From Escherichia coli (GTDB lineage: Bacteria; Pseudomonadota; Gammaproteobacteria; Enterobacterales; Enterobacteriaceae), in NCBI RefSeq assembly GCF_003334315.1, contig NZ_QOWR01000060.1: a DNA stretch of 28,819 nucleotides, one strand, 5' to 3'. Below the pieces are notes generated by a model that worked only from the letters and a program-made list of their open reading frames with translations, was not told where the DNA came from and searched no databases. The translations under genes were made by a program, and so were the position numbers. The stretch's first letter is position 1. Each line of letters begins with the position of its first letter. This document shows, in pieces, positions 1 to 28,337 of this stretch.

Positions 1-50
1 GTCCATTTCCGCGCAGACGATGACGTCACTGCCCGGCTGTATGCGCGAGG

Positions 51-326
51 TTACCGACTGCGGCCTGAGTTTTTTAAATGGCGGAAAATCGTGTTGAGGC
101 CAACGCCCATAATGCGGGCGGTTGCCCGGCATCCAACGCCATTCATGGCCATATCAATGATTTTCTGGTGCGTACCGGGTTGAGAAGCGGTGTAAGTGAA
201 CTGCAGTTGCCATGTTTTACGGCAGTGAGAGCAGAGATAGCGCTGATGTCCGGCGGTGCTTTTGCCGTTACGCACCACCCCGTCAGTAGCTGAACAGGAG
301 GGACAGCTGATAGAAACAGAAGCCAC
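51..326 (-). CDS. insA: IS1 InsA (transposition inhibitor / N-terminal part of InsAB' transposase)
   Basis: 91-aa [43 protein letters not shown]... with the zinc-finger CxxC...CxxC and helix-turn-helix typical of InsA. Confidence 0.95.
69..75 (-). other. IS1 programmed -1 ribosomal frameshift motif (A6C) at the insA/insB' junction
   Basis: The + strand reads GTTTTTT, i.e. AAAAAAC on the coding strand, at the end of insA, followed by the insB' frame (ATGGACGAACAGTGG is the rc of the window start). Confidence 0.8.
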
Positions 327-381
327 TGGAGCACCTCAAAAACACCATCATACACTAAATCAGTAAGTTGGCATCATCACC

Positions 382-633
382 GTGAATTTCCCGATATTGT
401 GAGATTAAAGAATAATAATGTTCACAAACAGAACGTGGATCTTCACTTTCACCGGCTAAATCAGCAATGACTAATCCGGAACGACGTAATTGTAATAAGG
501 TAAGGTCCTCCGCAGAGGCGCTGGATATTATTTCATATTCAGGGAAGTGAGTCCTCATGACCTCTTTTAACCCTGCTTGCATAACAGGTATTTTACTGAT
601 AACAATTCCATTTTTGCAGCATCCTGGCAACAT
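382..633 (-). pseudogene. yjjQ: yjjQ 5' fragment (LuxR-family regulator), truncated by the IS1 insertion after about 83 codons
   Basis: The ORF starts [44 protein letters not shown]... (YjjQ N-terminus). The frame runs straight into the IS1 IRL at 381 and stops inside IS1 (...REIH|GDDANLLI*). Full-length YjjQ is about 241 aa as I recall. Confidence 0.85.
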
Positions 634-1253
634 ATTTCCTCCACATCCACTGTCTAAAAATTATGATGGTTTATTCAGGATATTCATTCCTTAAATGTTT
701 CCAGCAAATTAATAGATTAAGCGAATAAATTATCCTTAGCATTCACTTTCATATCAGCATACTCCTGCTGCACAACAACTCCACTGCATGTGTCAGAAGG
801 TTAGCATCAAATGATAACCTGGTGAAATAGCCTGGAGACATTTAAAATATCTACATTAAGTTGTTAGGAATACTTAATGAAAAACAGAAATCACATTCAT
901 TTAATTTATAATTAAATGATATCCCTTCCCGCAGAATGCGGGAATCACACAATCAATATTTATTCAATAAAATCTGATGATTTTAACTTGTTAACACTAA
1001 AAAACGCGCCCAGCTATCTATTATCCTGACCCGTAAAGGCTAAAACAATAAATTCATTATAGTGATAATATTCATGTGATAGTTTGTTTGCGGCGAGAGA
1101 TAATTCGCTTTTTATCACCGAGCTTGTCCCGATAACCAGGATTAATCAGCGCAATTTTGATCTTAACCTACCGCAAAACAACCGTGCTTCATGATACAAA
1201 TGGATTCTCATTATCTGAACAATACGCAGCACGTCTATGACAAAGGGCGAGTT
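634..1253. promoter_or_regulatory. yjjQ / yjjP divergent intergenic region, strongly AT-rich
   Basis: About 600 bp of low-GC DNA between divergent genes, typical of nucleoid-protein (H-NS type) silenced divergent promoters. Contains a perfect hairpin TTCCCGCA-GAA-TGCGGGAA at 926..944. Confidence 0.5.
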
Positions 1254-19142: not shown

Positions 19143-20519
19143 ATGAGCGACACCTCACCTGCCATACCGGAGAGTATCGATCCGGCGAATCAGCATAAAG
19201 CGCTGACTGCCGGACAACAGGCGGTTATTAAGAAGCTGTTTCGCCGCCTGATCGTCTTTCTGTTCGTGCTGTTTATCTTCTCGTTCCTTGATCGCATCAA
19301 CATCGGCTTTGCCGGACTCACGATGGGACGCGACCTCGGTCTGAGCGCCACCATGTTTGGCCTCGCTACCACCCTGTTCTATGCCGCTTATGTCATCTTC
19401 GGCATTCCCAGCAACATTATGCTGAGTATTGTCGGTGCGCGGCGCTGGATCGCCACCATCATGGTGCTTTGGGGCATCGCCTCTACTGCCACCATGTTTG
19501 CCACTGGCCCCACCAGCTTGTACGTACTGCGTATACTGGTTGGCATTACCGAAGCCGGCTTTCTGCCCGGCATTCTGCTGTATTTAACCTTCTGGTTTCC
19601 GGCCTATTTCCGCGCCCGTGCCAACGCCTTGTTTATGGTAGCAATGCCGGTAACGACAGCGTTGGGATCGATCGTTTCCGGCTACATTTTGTCGCTGGAT
19701 GGCGTAATGGCATTAAAAGGCTGGCAGTGGCTGTTTTTGCTGGAAGGCTTCCCGTCGGTATTACTCGGCGTCATGGTGTGGTTCTGGCTTGATGACTCAC
19801 CGGACAAAGCTAAGTGGCTGACGAAAGAAGACAAAAAATGCCTGCAAGAGATGATGGATAACGATCGTCTGACGCTGGTTCAGCCAGAGGGAGCCATCAG
19901 CCACCACGCCATGCAACAACGCAGCATGTGGCGGGAGATCTTCACTCCGGTGGTGATGATGTATACCCTGGCGTATTTCTGCCTGACCAACACACTTAGT
20001 GCGATCAGCATCTGGACACCGCAGATCCTACAAAGCTTTAATCAGGGCAGCAGTAATATCACCATCGGCCTGCTGGCCGCCGTACCGCAGATTTGTACCA
20101 TTCTCGGGATGGTCTACTGGAGCCGTCACTCAGATCGCCGCCAGGAACGAAGGCATCACACCGCCCTTCCTTATTTGTTCGCTGCCGCTGGTTGGTTACT
20201 GGCTTCGGCAACTGATCACAACATGATCCAGATGCTGGGGATCATTATGGCTTCGACCGGATCATTCAGCGCAATGGCGATTTTCTGGACAACACCGGAT
20301 CAGTCCATCAGCCTGCGGGCACGAGCGATCGGTATTGCGGTGATCAACGCCACTGGCAACATTGGTTCAGCGTTAAGTCCGTTTATGATCGGCTGGTTGA
20401 AAGATTTGACCGGCAGCTTTAACAGTGGATTGTGGTTTGTTGCCGCGCTGCTGGTGATTGGTGCGGGGATTATCTGGGCGATTCCAATGCAGTCCTCCCG
20501 TCCGCGAGCGACCCCGTAA
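19143..20519 (+). CDS. hpaX: HpaX, MFS 4-hydroxyphenylacetate permease
   Basis: ORF 19083..20519; start at the ATG with SD AGAGGAAG (MSDTSPAIPESIDPANQHK...), 458 aa, 12 predicted transmembrane segments. Confidence 0.9.
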   Translation: MSDTSPAIPESIDPANQHKALTAGQQAVIKKLFRRLIVFLFVLFIFSFLDRINIGFAGLTMGRDLGLSATMFGLATTLFYAAYVIFGIPSNIMLSIVGARRWIATIMVLWGIASTATMFATGPTSLYVLRILVGITEAGFLPGILLYLTFWFPAYFRARANALFMVAMPVTTALGSIVSGYILSLDGVMALKGWQWLFLLEGFPSVLLGVMVWFWLDDSPDKAKWLTKEDKKCLQEMMDNDRLTLVQPEGAISHHAMQQRSMWREIFTPVVMMYTLAYFCLTNTLSAISIWTPQILQSFNQGSSNITIGLLAAVPQICTILGMVYWSRHSDRRQERRHHTALPYLFAAAGWLLASATDHNMIQMLGIIMASTGSFSAMAIFWTTPDQSISLRARAIGIAVINATGNIGSALSPFMIGWLKDLTGSFNSGLWFVAALLVIGAGIIWAIPMQSSRPRATP

Positions 20520-20528
20520 GGAACGACG

Positions 20529-21419
20529 ATGTGTGACCGTCAGATTGCCAATATTGATATCAGCAAAGAGTACGATGAAAGCCTGGGCACGGACGATGTG
20601 CATTATCAGTCGTTCGCCCGCATGGCGGCATTTTTTGGCCGCCATATGCTGCCACATCGCCACGAACAGTACTTTCAGATGCATTTCCTCAATAGCGGAC
20701 AGATTGAGCTACAGCTTGACGATCATCGCTACTCGGTGGAAGCGCCCCTGTTTGTCCTGACGCCGCCGTCAGTACCTCATGCGTTTATTACGGAGTCTGA
20801 CGCCGACGGTCATGTGTTGACGGTACGGGAAGATCTGATCTGGCCCCTGCTGGAAGTTCTTTATCCGGGCACTCGGGAAACCTTCGGCCTGCCGGGGATT
20901 TGCCTGTCACTGGCAGATAAACCCGACGAACTGGCGGCGCTGGAACACTATTGGCAACTGATAGAGCGGGAATCGGTAGAACAACTGCCTGGACGGGAAC
21001 ACACCCTGACGTTACTGGCACAGGCAGTGTTCACCCTACTGCTGCGTAACGCAAAACTCGACGACCATGCCGCCAGCGGAATGCGCGGAGAATTAAAACT
21101 GTTCCAGCGTTTTAATATGCTGATTGAAAGCCATTTTCATCAGCACTGGACAGTACCGGATTACGCTAACGAACTGCATATCACCGAATCACGCCTCACG
21201 GACATCTGCCGCCGCTTTGCCAACCGTCCGCCAAAACGGTTGATTTTCGACAGGCAGCTGCGAGAAGCCAAGCGGTTGCTGCTGTTTTCTGATAACGCCG
21301 TGAACAATATTGCCTGGCAACTCGGTTTTAAGGATCCGGCTTATTTTGCGCGCTTTTTTAATCGCTTAGTCGGTTGCTCGCCCAGTGCTTATCGCGCCAA
21401 AAAAGTACCTGTGACGTGA
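20529..21419 (+). CDS. hpaA: HpaA, AraC/XylS-family activator of hpaBC
   Basis: 296 aa; C-terminal AraC-type HTH (IAWQLGFKDPAYFARFFNRLVGCSPSAYR); immediately upstream of hpaBC. Confidence 0.9.
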   Translation: MCDRQIANIDISKEYDESLGTDDVHYQSFARMAAFFGRHMLPHRHEQYFQMHFLNSGQIELQLDDHRYSVEAPLFVLTPPSVPHAFITESDADGHVLTVREDLIWPLLEVLYPGTRETFGLPGICLSLADKPDELAALEHYWQLIERESVEQLPGREHTLTLLAQAVFTLLLRNAKLDDHAASGMRGELKLFQRFNMLIESHFHQHWTVPDYANELHITESRLTDICRRFANRPPKRLIFDRQLREAKRLLLFSDNAVNNIAWQLGFKDPAYFARFFNRLVGCSPSAYRAKKVPVT

Positions 21420-21669
21420 AAATCCCTTAGCCTTAACGGGAAACCAGGCACCACCTGCTATTCCCCTTTCTCCGCCTGGAGCAAGGGGATTTAGTAACGT
21501 TAAAAATCGCTAAAAGCGACCTCGATCACAAAACCGTACCCGACCTGAAAAGTACCAGCCATTGTCCCAAAAGTGTCTTCCCGTAATCGCCCCTGCAAGC
21601 TTCAATTGAATAACAAAAACAACACACAAAATTAACAATCGTATTCCGATTAATACTGTAGAGGTCGAT
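21420..21669 (+). promoter_or_regulatory. hpaBC promoter region (HpaA-activated), including a hairpin after hpaA
   Basis: 250-bp intergenic region; hairpin TCCCCTT...AAGGGGA at about 21452..21482; palindrome TCGCT-aaa-AGCGA at about 21507..21519; A-rich tract AACAAAAACAACACACAAAATTAACAA upstream of the hpaB SD. Confidence 0.5.
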
Positions 21670-23232
21670 ATGAAACCAGAAGATTTCCGCGCCAGTACCC
21701 AACGTCCGTTCACCGGGGAAGAGTATCTGAAAAGCCTGCAGGATGGTCGCGAGATCTATATCTATGGCGAGCGAGTGAAAGACGTCACCACTCATCCGGC
21801 ATTTCGTAATGCGGCAGCGTCTGTTGCCCAACTGTACGACGCGCTACACAAACCGGAGATGCAGGACTCTCTGTGTTGGAACACCGACACCGGTAGCGGC
21901 GGCTATACCCATAAATTCTTCCGCGTGGCGAAAAGTGCCGACGACCTGCGCCAGCAACGCGACGCCATCGCTGAGTGGTCACGCCTGAGCTATGGCTGGA
22001 TGGGCCGTACCCCAGACTACAAAGCCGCTTTCGGTTGCGCACTGGGCGCGAATCCGGGCTTTTACGGTCAGTTCGAGCAGAACGCCCGTAACTGGTACAC
22101 CCGTATTCAGGAAACTGGCCTCTACTTTAACCACGCGATTGTTAACCCACCGATCGATCGTCATTTGCCGACCGATAAAGTGAAAGACGTTTACATCAAG
22201 CTGGAAAAAGAGACTGACGCCGGGATTATCGTCAGCGGTGCGAAAGTGGTTGCCACCAACTCGGCGCTGACTCACTACAACATGATTGGCTTCGGCTCGG
22301 CACAAGTGATGGGCGAAAACCCGGACTTCGCACTGATGTTCGTTGCGCCAATGGATGCCGATGGCGTGAAATTAATCTCCCGCGCCTCTTATGAGATGGT
22401 CGCGGGTGCTACCGGCTCGCCGTACGACTACCCGCTCTCCAGCCGCTTCGATGAGAACGATGCGATTCTGGTGATGGATAACGTGCTGATCCCATGGGAA
22501 AACGTGCTGATCTACCGCGATTTCGATCGCTGCCGTCGCTGGACAATGGAAGGCGGTTTTGCCCGTATGTATCCGCTGCAAGCCTGTGTGCGCCTGGCAG
22601 TGAAATTAGACTTCATTACGGCACTGCTGAAAAAATCACTCGAATGTACCGGCACCCTGGAGTTCCGTGGTGTGCAGGCCGATCTCGGTGAAGTGGTGGC
22701 GTGGCGCAACACCTTCTGGGCATTGAGTGACTCGATGTGTTCAGAAGCGACGCCGTGGGTCAACGGGGCTTATTTACCGGATCATGCCGCACTGCAAACC
22801 TATCGCGTACTGGCACCAATGGCCTACGCGAAGATCAAAAACATTATCGAACGCAACGTTACCAGTGGCCTGATCTATCTCCCTTCCAGTGCCCGTGACC
22901 TGAACAATCCGCAGATCGACCAGTATCTGGCGAAGTATGTGCGCGGTTCGAACGGTATGGATCACGTCCAGCGCATCAAGATCCTCAAACTGATGTGGGA
23001 CGCCATTGGCAGCGAATTTGGTGGTCGTCACGAGCTGTATGAAATCAACTACTCCGGTAGCCAGGATGAGATTCGCCTGCAGTGTCTGCGCCAGGCACAA
23101 AGCTCCGGCAATATGGACAAGATGATGGCGATGGTTGATCGCTGCCTGTCGGAATACGACCAGAACGGCTGGACTGTGCCGCACCTGCACAACAACGACG
23201 ATATCAACATGCTGGATAAGCTGCTGAAATAA
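21670..23232 (+). CDS. hpaB: HpaB, 4-hydroxyphenylacetate 3-monooxygenase, oxygenase (FADH2-utilising) component
   Basis: 520 aa (MKPEDFRASTQRPFTGEEYLKSLQDGREIYIYGERVKDVTTHPAFRN...). Confidence 0.95.
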   Translation: MKPEDFRASTQRPFTGEEYLKSLQDGREIYIYGERVKDVTTHPAFRNAAASVAQLYDALHKPEMQDSLCWNTDTGSGGYTHKFFRVAKSADDLRQQRDAIAEWSRLSYGWMGRTPDYKAAFGCALGANPGFYGQFEQNARNWYTRIQETGLYFNHAIVNPPIDRHLPTDKVKDVYIKLEKETDAGIIVSGAKVVATNSALTHYNMIGFGSAQVMGENPDFALMFVAPMDADGVKLISRASYEMVAGATGSPYDYPLSSRFDENDAILVMDNVLIPWENVLIYRDFDRCRRWTMEGGFARMYPLQACVRLAVKLDFITALLKKSLECTGTLEFRGVQADLGEVVAWRNTFWALSDSMCSEATPWVNGAYLPDHAALQTYRVLAPMAYAKIKNIIERNVTSGLIYLPSSARDLNNPQIDQYLAKYVRGSNGMDHVQRIKILKLMWDAIGSEFGGRHELYEINYSGSQDEIRLQCLRQAQSSGNMDKMMAMVDRCLSEYDQNGWTVPHLHNNDDINMLDKLLK

Positions 23233-23249
23233 CGCAGCAGGAGGTTAAG

Positions 23250-23762
23250 ATGCAATTAGATGAACAACGCCTGCGCTTTCGTGACGCGATGGCCAGCCTG
23301 TCGGCAGCGGTAAATATTATCACCACCGAGGGCGACGCCGGACAATGCGGGATTACGGCAACGGCTGTCTGCTCGGTCACGGATACACCACCGTCGCTGA
23401 TGGTGTGCATTAACGCCAACAGTGCGATGAACCCGGTTTTTCAGGGCAACGGTAAGTTGTGCGTCAACGTCCTCAACCATGAGCAGGAACTGATGGCACG
23501 CCACTTCGCGGGCATGACAGGCATGGCGATGGAAGAGCGTTTTAGCCTCTCATGCTGGCAAAAAGGTCCGCTGGCGCAGCCGGTGCTGAAAGGTTCGCTG
23601 GCCAGTCTTGAAGGAGAGATCCGCGATGTGCAGGCGATTGGCACACATCTGGTGTATCTGGTGGAGATTAAAAACATCATCCTCAGTGCAGAAGGTCACG
23701 GACTTATTTACTTTAAACGCCGTTTCCATCCGGTGATGCTGGAAATGGAAGCTGCGATTTAA
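23250..23762 (+). CDS. hpaC: HpaC, NADH:flavin oxidoreductase component of 4-HPA 3-monooxygenase
   Basis: 170 aa (MQLDEQRLRFRDAMASLSAAVNIITTEGDAGQCGITATAVCSV...), flavin-reductase fold; follows hpaB with an SD. Confidence 0.93.
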   Translation: MQLDEQRLRFRDAMASLSAAVNIITTEGDAGQCGITATAVCSVTDTPPSLMVCINANSAMNPVFQGNGKLCVNVLNHEQELMARHFAGMTGMAMEERFSLSCWQKGPLAQPVLKGSLASLEGEIRDVQAIGTHLVYLVEIKNIILSAEGHGLIYFKRRFHPVMLEMEAAI

Positions 23763-27692: not shown

Positions 27693-27884
27693 TTATTGCG
27701 CGTGAATACCTGGATCTGGCAAAAAATTGCCGCGTTTGGCGTCAGACCATGCTTCGCTACCAGAAGCAGGAATGTCGCTGTAATCAATGTCTTCGTCGGA
27801 TTTATTAACCAAAGCCATGAGTTCAGCTTCTTGCTGCACATCAAGTGTGTAGAGTGTGCCCCGTTTATGTTTAACCATGCTCAT
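27693..27884 (-). CDS. Hypothetical small acidic protein (63 aa) with a DEDIDYSDIP motif; possibly a remnant of a small antitoxin-like gene
   Basis: ORF MSMVKHKRGTLYTLDVQQEAELMALVNKSDEDIDYSDIPASGSEAWSDAKRGNFLPDPGIHAQ, 39 bp downstream of the 137-aa ORF on the same strand, with an AAAGG SD-like sequence upstream. No family assignment could be verified. Confidence 0.4.
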   Translation of the reverse strand: MSMVKHKRGTLYTLDVQQEAELMALVNKSDEDIDYSDIPASGSEAWSDAKRGNFLPDPGIHAQ

Positions 27885-27923: not shown

Positions 27924-28337
27924 TTATTTCAGCCATCCAGGCACGTTATATTCTGAGACATTCTCAATGGAATATGCATCTCTCCTGTCAGAACCTTTCT
28001 TACACTTCAACTCATTGAACCCCCATTTACCCTCTCTATTGGAATAAAATACAGTATATTTATCGGTATTAAACCCGAAATATCTTTCATCCGGACGTGA
28101 AATATTCAACTCTCCACATTTAACCTGACTGCGCCATTCAAAATCTATGGTGCTTTTTAAAACGTAGTACGAAATATTCTCTACATTTTTTGAAGCAAAA
28201 ACTACTAAAATAGTAGATACTATAAATGCTCCGGCAAGTATAAATAACCTATACACACTTAATTTAGTCCCCAGAGTTAAAAAAGCAAAATAGATAATAA
28301 GTTGCATCAACATGAAGAAAATTAACAAAAAAGCCAT
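27924..28337 (-). CDS. Hypothetical membrane-anchored protein (137 aa; two N-terminal hydrophobic helices plus an ~85-aa soluble domain) in a very AT-rich segment
   Basis: ORF MAFLLIFFMLMQLIIYFAFLTLGTKLSVYRLFILAGAFIVSTILVVFASKN... followed by a Lys/Asn/Tyr-rich domain. GC content is far below the neighbouring genes. The start codon lies 30 bp from the IS1 IRR end, and IS1 transcription is oriented toward it. Confidence 0.5.
   Translation of the reverse strand: MAFLLIFFMLMQLIIYFAFLTLGTKLSVYRLFILAGAFIVSTILVVFASKNVENISYYVLKSTIDFEWRSQVKCGELNISRPDERYFGFNTDKYTVFYSNREGKWGFNELKCKKGSDRRDAYSIENVSEYNVPGWLK

Follow-up and report, generated by a model that had tools for sequence, protein, structure and literature searches.

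Background

The yjjQ-bglJ operon of Escherichia coli is repressed by H-NS (PMC3950696), and in the laboratory allele bglJC a mini-Tn10 inserted in yjjQ/bglJ directs constitutive expression of bglJ (PMC3950696, PMC6698644). The product of the first gene, YjjQ, is reported to repress flhDC, as far as the title of Wiebe et al. (2015) in the reference list of PMC5493358 conveys it, and also the genes for capsule formation (bioRxiv 10.64898/2026.05.27.728231). The latter source, a 2026 preprint, also lists yjjQ among the genes mutated in the inflamed gut. During colonization of the mouse gut, insertion sequence (IS) elements in the spacer between yjjP and yjjQ were found as parallel adaptive targets, and in the one clone assayed the expression of yjjP was 2-fold up under aerobic conditions (PMC4674774, PMC5094792). 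In a related setting, IS1 and IS5 activate the bgl operon by inserting in its upstream silencer, in cells selected as Bgl-positive (PMC9678765, PMC5493358). Transposons are captured by H-NS-bound DNA (PMC11335895), and the target duplications made by IS1 measure 8-9 bp (PMC12428005).

The window, i.e. the whole 28,819-nt stretch of E. coli DNA analysed here, contains an IS1 joined to the coding sequence of yjjQ, and its nearest counterparts are the IS1-disrupted yjjQ pseudogenes annotated in RefSeq for HZ13, CUVET19-1426/W21, ZH142, JMK_KBN3987, VG1046-3E9, ETEC4090 and the OkiPb series. These share the element family and the gene with the window, most of them with clean 8-9-bp duplications and an intact bglJ, but the exact configuration of the window, with the left inverted repeat (IRL) of a co-oriented IS1 joined to nucleotide 252 of yjjQ, occurs in none of 5,426 complete E. 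coli genomes. ZH142 comes closest: its 9-bp target is the same and its IS1 agrees at all 381 visible nucleotides, whereas the orientation is opposite and the flank only 97.2% identical. With bglJC the locus has in common a mobile element inserted ahead of bglJ in the yjjQ-bglJ operon; the mini-Tn10 directs constitutive bglJ expression, whereas no outward promoter is predicted for the window IS1. The mini-Tn10 allele reportedly came from a laboratory selection for the Bgl-positive phenotype. The likeness to the mouse-gut mutants lies in a locus that is recurrently hit by IS elements, and natural genomes also have intergenic IS1 copies, at -456, -106 and -15; the mouse-gut insertions are intergenic, whereas that of the window is inside the coding sequence of yjjQ, ~870 bp from the start of yjjP. 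Similar to the activated bgl alleles, an IS has entered AT-rich, H-NS-bound DNA where it could in principle disturb silencing, but here it sits in the first gene of the operon rather than in an upstream silencer. The feature is an ordinary IS1 pseudogenization of a cryptic, H-NS-silenced regulator, at a hot spot of a known type.

Results

Window positions 1-381 (minus strand) are the left-end piece of an IS1B-type IS1, comprising sense bases 1-381 of an element whose full length would be 768 bp; the contig begins within the element, and the rest, with the insB′ DDE catalytic part and the right inverted repeat, would lie outside it. In BLAST, the piece covered bases 1-381 of a full IS1 of E. 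coli TOE3 at 98.7% identity, and the IS1 of ZH142, annotated as 'IS1B family', showed no mismatch to it, so the assignment is no chance resemblance. The insA gene (51-326, minus strand, 91 aa) matched the NCBIfam models NF033558 (IS1 transposase) and NF050000 (IS1/IS1595 zinc-binding domain), and the A6C programmed -1 frameshift motif of the family, AAAAAAC, can be read at 75-69. The IRL occupies 359-381 on the minus strand and reads GGTGATGATGCCAACTTACTGAT on the IS1 sense strand. Terminal repeats of the family are ~23 bp long with the left end GGTGATGCTGCCAACTTACTGAT, and the repeat of the window departs from the canonical GGTGATGCTGCC by one mismatch, a C-to-A change at repeat base 8. This variant, beginning GGTGATGATGCC, was present as an exact 60-nt end in 363 of 9,312 IS1-bearing E. 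coli records and is thus a minority variant; since it is found at new sites, it is evidently transposition-competent. A promoter-like site at 374-347 (minus strand) coincides with the position expected for the IS1 promoter, which is housed in the IRL.

The join to yjjQ is sharp. Base 381 is the last base of IS1 and 382 the first of the flank, in keeping with the repeat edge proposed in an earlier note on this DNA, and BLAST matches to intact loci likewise begin at query base 382. The 252 nt from 633 down to 382 (minus strand) are codons 1-84 of yjjQ, with DNA and protein both identical to those of the uninterrupted gene in E. coli TOE3 and L73, and in the protein alignment YjjQ 1-84 follows the full-length protein residue for residue. 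The truncation by IS1 that the note had described is therefore present, but its count of about 83 codons has to be corrected to 84. Past codon 84, the frame continues through eight IS1-coded codons (GDDANLLI) and stops inside IS1 at a TAG (357-355), giving a fusion ORF of 92 aa at 355-633 on the minus strand. As the note had it, IS1, with insA on the minus strand, points in the same direction as yjjQ, and the 9-bp flank directly adjoining the IRL, GTGAATTTC at 382-390, reads as given there. On the gene strand these 9 bp are GAAATTCAC, yjjQ nt 244-252 (counted from the A of the ATG, as are all allele positions below), and they are expected to be one copy of a target-site duplication.

Only codons 1-84 of the 241-codon yjjQ frame are retained in the window. 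The sole DNA-binding domain of YjjQ (GerE/LuxR helix-turn-helix), as placed by Pfam, spans residues 153-206 and is absent from the 92-aa product. An 84-residue stub lacking this domain would not make a functional regulator, and the window yjjQ thus appears to be a null allele, judging from its coding content; the loss of YjjQ function suspected earlier is consistent with this reading.

The same 92-aa fusion product was called on four Logan contigs, with the source shown for two of them (SRR10357290 and SRR3824135). When fetched, these two contigs proved identical to the window along 10,280 and 7,203 aligned nucleotides (0 mismatches), and stopped ~28 nt inside IS1. In complete genomes the junction was absent: in a search of 5,426 complete E. 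coli genomes with a 160-nt junction probe, contiguous matches did not exceed 93.5% identity and fell on neighbouring insertion sites only. The closest complete genome is that of TOE3, which was compared over two stretches of the window: it is an exact match at 382-1190 and aligns at 4000-28366 (24,367 nt) as one BLAST piece of 100% identity. In TOE3, both yjjQ and bglJ are intact, while the IS1 found at the far end of the window is already present. With an intact relative this close, and with the junction absent from the 5,426 genomes, the event in yjjQ is of recent date and restricted to a small lineage.

The window allele has many neighbours. Upstream of yjjQ, IS1 occupies -456 to -448 in TUM13064 (same orientation as yjjQ), -106 to -98 in H1827/12 (opposite) and -15 to -7 in both DAX4 (same) and Z1323PEC0011 (opposite), the latter two with the identical 9 bp GTGGATGTG. 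Within the gene, ETEC4090 (nt 124-131, opposite) and VG1046-3E9 (127-135, same) have IS1, and one genome (L013) has an IS3-family element at 128-132. Further on, IS1 is found at 203-211 in OkiPb01701 (opposite), whose upstream junction is common to 10034940-2 with an additional deletion to nt 554, at 223-231 in HZ13 (same), and at 241-249 in three genomes with a divergent IS1-family element (L008, L012 and L017; same). The window target, 244-252, is followed by those of CUVET19-1426 (255-262, same; the BLAST match of W21 is identical in span and identity) and JMK_KBN3987 (268-275, opposite). ZH142 has its IS1 at 244-252 in opposite orientation with GAAATTCAC on both sides, and PSS-11 has an opposite IS1 following nt 249 and a deletion to nt 642. 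Nucleotides 203-275 have thereby received at least eight independent IS1-family insertions, four in each orientation.

Approximately 20 complete genomes have IS1 in this 73-bp stretch, some of them clonal (e.g. ten OkiPb isolates). A uniform spread of the 58,761 chromosomal IS1 copies would put IS1 there in ~0.9 genomes, a rough figure that assumes a chromosome of approximately 4.8 Mb and counts genomes, clonal ones included. Across the ~2-kb locus, IS1 is present in ~1% of the complete E. coli genomes (n = 5,426), oriented as yjjQ in 21 and opposite in 39, and nothing indicates a preference for co-orientation. The public protein cluster containing the fusion product has 213 members, among them entries named Shigella dysenteriae, S. 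sonnei and S. flexneri; the members that were read are mostly truncated N-terminal fragments of YjjQ.

The same 9-bp targets have been used in opposite orientation by unrelated strains in two places, GAAATTCAC in yjjQ and GTGGATGTG just upstream of the yjjQ ribosome-binding site. For the former, a common origin of the window and ZH142 alleles is ruled out: the 5′ part of yjjQ is joined to IRL in one and to IRR in the other, which is unattainable by homologous recombination between IS copies, and the two are separate events. Relative to TOE3, the flanks are 100% identical in the window and 97.2% in ZH142. The genomes L008, L012 and L017 have two IS1-family elements (561-1328 and 2215-2980), one of which is in yjjP-proximal DNA, and bglJ is split into two ORFs.

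The GC content is 28-40% across window 301-1200. This segment takes in part of the divergent yjjQ-yjjP intergenic region (634-1253), which is AT-rich, contains the promoters and the H-NS-silenced region and is intact, with the exact match to TOE3 extending to 1190; yjjP follows at 1254-2024, as mapped from the TOE3 annotation.

Discussion

The join between IS1 and yjjQ could in principle have arisen in the computer, from a repeat collapsed at the contig end, with an undisrupted yjjQ in the source genome. In line with such an artefact, the window is a short-read contig broken inside IS1 at both ends, and these ends share 66 nt. Nevertheless, the join sits exactly at the terminal base of IS1, the contig enters a specific IS1 variant by 381 nt, far beyond any k-mer overlap, and the same join recurs on the four Logan contigs, two of which come from different sequencing runs and agree with the window over 7-10 kb. 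Identical junction and flanks in two runs make an assembly chimera very unlikely, to the point where we give it almost no weight, and the junction, for which the earlier note had left a chimera open, is to be regarded as genuine.

What lies beyond the IS1 is a matter of greater doubt, since only one junction is visible and we infer an insertion from it. A recent, lineage-specific transposition would have put the IS1B-type IS1 into yjjQ at GAAATTCAC (nt 244-252), with a 9-bp duplication expected and the 3′ part of yjjQ and bglJ directly beyond the element. The far junction would then read CAATAAGTTGGAGTCATTACC-GAAATTCAC-TGGGTTTTCATGG, that is, the right end of IS1, then the duplicated target, then yjjQ from nt 253 onward. 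The main rival is an adjacent deletion or rearrangement mediated by IS1, after which the 3′ region of yjjQ, possibly with bglJ, would be missing or located elsewhere. Such events do happen at this locus: PSS-11, with IS1 at nt 249, has lost nt 250-642, strain 10034940-2 lacks nt 212-554, and a Shigella-type genome group (L009 and relatives) has IS1 in place of nt -50 to 154. These make up 3 of the 16 alleles mapped at both junctions, ~1 in 5. Moreover, the far side lies outside the window, whose two ends are IS1 copies in direct orientation, separated by 28 kb. Against a deletion, 13 of the 16 characterized alleles are simple insertions with clean duplications, of 8-9 bp for IS1 or 5 bp for the IS3-family element; the event is recent and the nearest complete relative has an intact locus; and, in the parts compared (382-1190 and 4000-28366), the 28-kb interval separating the IS1 copies shows 100% identity to TOE3. 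We therefore consider a deletion unlikely, and a simple insertion with a 9-bp duplication to be quite probable.

The other side of the window allele was also sought in public sequence data. Neither the 3′ part of yjjQ belonging to this allele nor a duplicate of its 9 bp was found in the 5,426 complete genomes, and a metagenome scan with a degenerate pattern for both junctions, which also fits intact yjjQ, returned 112 contigs that were all intact at the site. The downstream ORF predicted for a simple insertion (154 aa, starting at M88) occurred in 1,206 blocks of the collection, in many different truncation and nonsense alleles; it is too common to be traced to samples carrying the window junction, and its frequency indicates that truncation of yjjQ near codon 85 is widespread. 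One genome (L011, OZ039712.1, 2740-3468) has a stop codon at W85 of yjjQ, the codon directly after the IS1 junction of the window, together with the 154-aa ORF from M88.

The consequences for bglJ are of interest given the precedent of bglJC. The earlier note was right about the background, i.e. that yjjQ-bglJ is silenced by H-NS and that insertions there alter the expression of bglJ (PMC3950696, PMC6698644), and it had considered transcription reading out of the co-oriented IS1 toward bglJ conceivable. Read-through or outward transcription from IS1, or a breach of H-NS silencing, would turn on bglJ and yield a Bgl-positive strain with an active BglJ-RcsB regulon, a natural analogue of bglJC. 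Besides the mini-Tn10 precedent and the orientation of the element, the adaptive IS insertions between yjjP and yjjQ in the mouse gut, with the 2-fold increase of yjjP in one clone under aerobic conditions (PMC4674774, PMC5094792), speak for such an effect. However, neither the 21 versus 39 genomes at the locus nor the four versus four insertions at nt 203-275 show a bias toward co-orientation, and a consensus scan of the reconstructed right-end junction of IS1 gave no acceptable -35/-10 pair, the best pair of hexamers scoring 8/12 with a poor -10 (TCTGAA) and lying inside IS1. With no orientation bias and no outward promoter, read-out toward bglJ is unsupported. In addition, the IS1 promoter in the IRL has low activity and is under repression by InsA, and insertions of IS1 are classically polar whichever way the element faces.

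Translation points the same way. The next in-frame ATG of yjjQ (M88) has no visible Shine-Dalgarno sequence, and in the TOE3 locus bglJ begins within yjjQ, 43 nt before its end, so the 474 nt of yjjQ that would lie between IS1 and bglJ, devoid of an efficient start codon, would be poorly translated and exposed to polarity. The operon being silent already, the effect on bglJ is predicted to be neutral or polar rather than activating, and activation by the IS1 is improbable. bglJ is intact in TOE3 and in other IS1-bearing alleles. A related proposal is that the insertion separates bglJ from the H-NS-nucleating 5′ region of yjjQ and adds read-through from IS1, so that bglJ would be constitutive in a natural isolate; we consider this equally improbable. 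If true, it would imply that the repeated IS hits in yjjQ of E. coli and Shigella reflect selection in the gut, beyond target preference alone.

The reading that probably accounts best for the locus as a whole is a recent simple insertion of IS1 at a hot spot, leaving yjjQ null and bglJ neutral or subject to polarity. The AT-rich, H-NS-silenced 5′ third of yjjQ is a recurrent landing site for IS1, where frequent hits may follow from the target preference of IS1 and the capture of transposons by H-NS-bound DNA rather than from selection for bglJ expression. Together with the fact that a silent operon tolerates insertions, target preference is enough to account for the pattern. Natural selection for loss of YjjQ is possible, considering the gut-related insertions and mutations of yjjQ in the literature, and is not separable here from target preference. 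A useful outcome is the recognition of a dense natural target for IS1 that takes in the 5′ third of yjjQ and its spacer to yjjP; this fits the recent idea of transposon capture by H-NS-bound DNA and parallels the IS insertions observed at the locus in mouse-gut evolution experiments.

A point overlooked in the earlier note is that the window ends in IS1 on both sides, being an entire short-read contig broken inside IS1 at either end. As the contig is bounded by an IS1 copy on either side, the far junction, the 3′ part of yjjQ and bglJ are on other contigs, which calls for caution in annotation, for half an event is all that contigs ending in IS1 reveal. The second, older copy is represented at 28367-28819 (minus strand) by an IRR-end piece of the IS1A type in the same orientation as the first, and is identical to the TOE3 IS1A copy that adjoins a truncated hsdS. 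It is outside the yjjQ event, yet explains where the window stops. The last 66 nt of the window equal its first 66 nt. The IS1A and IS1B pieces differ at positions 325, 373, 376, 465, 468, 471, 507 and 761, counted from the IRR; on this scale the right piece ends at 453 (376 + 77) and the left one begins at 388 (465 - 77). Such break points, each precisely 77 nt past a type-specific base (376 and 465), are the signature of a de Bruijn contig with a 77-nt overlap, as arises where the assembler merges two variants of a repeat. A circular molecule or a tandem amplification as the source of the 66-nt overlap was ruled out, given the two IS1 types and the fit of the break points to the 77-nt graph overlap.

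In TOE3 (locus record L007, 32368-33848; window 28367 onward), the far-end IS1 abuts a gene for the restriction subunit S (hsdS) that lacks its N-terminus, and the restriction ('immigration control') region of the lineage has been remodelled by this older IS1 event. An Rfam scan of the whole window gave no match. Beside the far-end IS1 is a pair of small genes (27693-27884 and 27924-28337, both on the minus strand) that RefSeq names 'antitoxin' and 'hypothetical protein'; the pair had no NCBIfam match and a single weak match in PADLOC (ThsA Macro domain, E = 0.0037), probably due to chance. Between tsr and btsT, at window 12585-23762, the TOE3 annotation places a complete 4-hydroxyphenylacetate (hpa) catabolic cluster, which we take to be absent from K-12.
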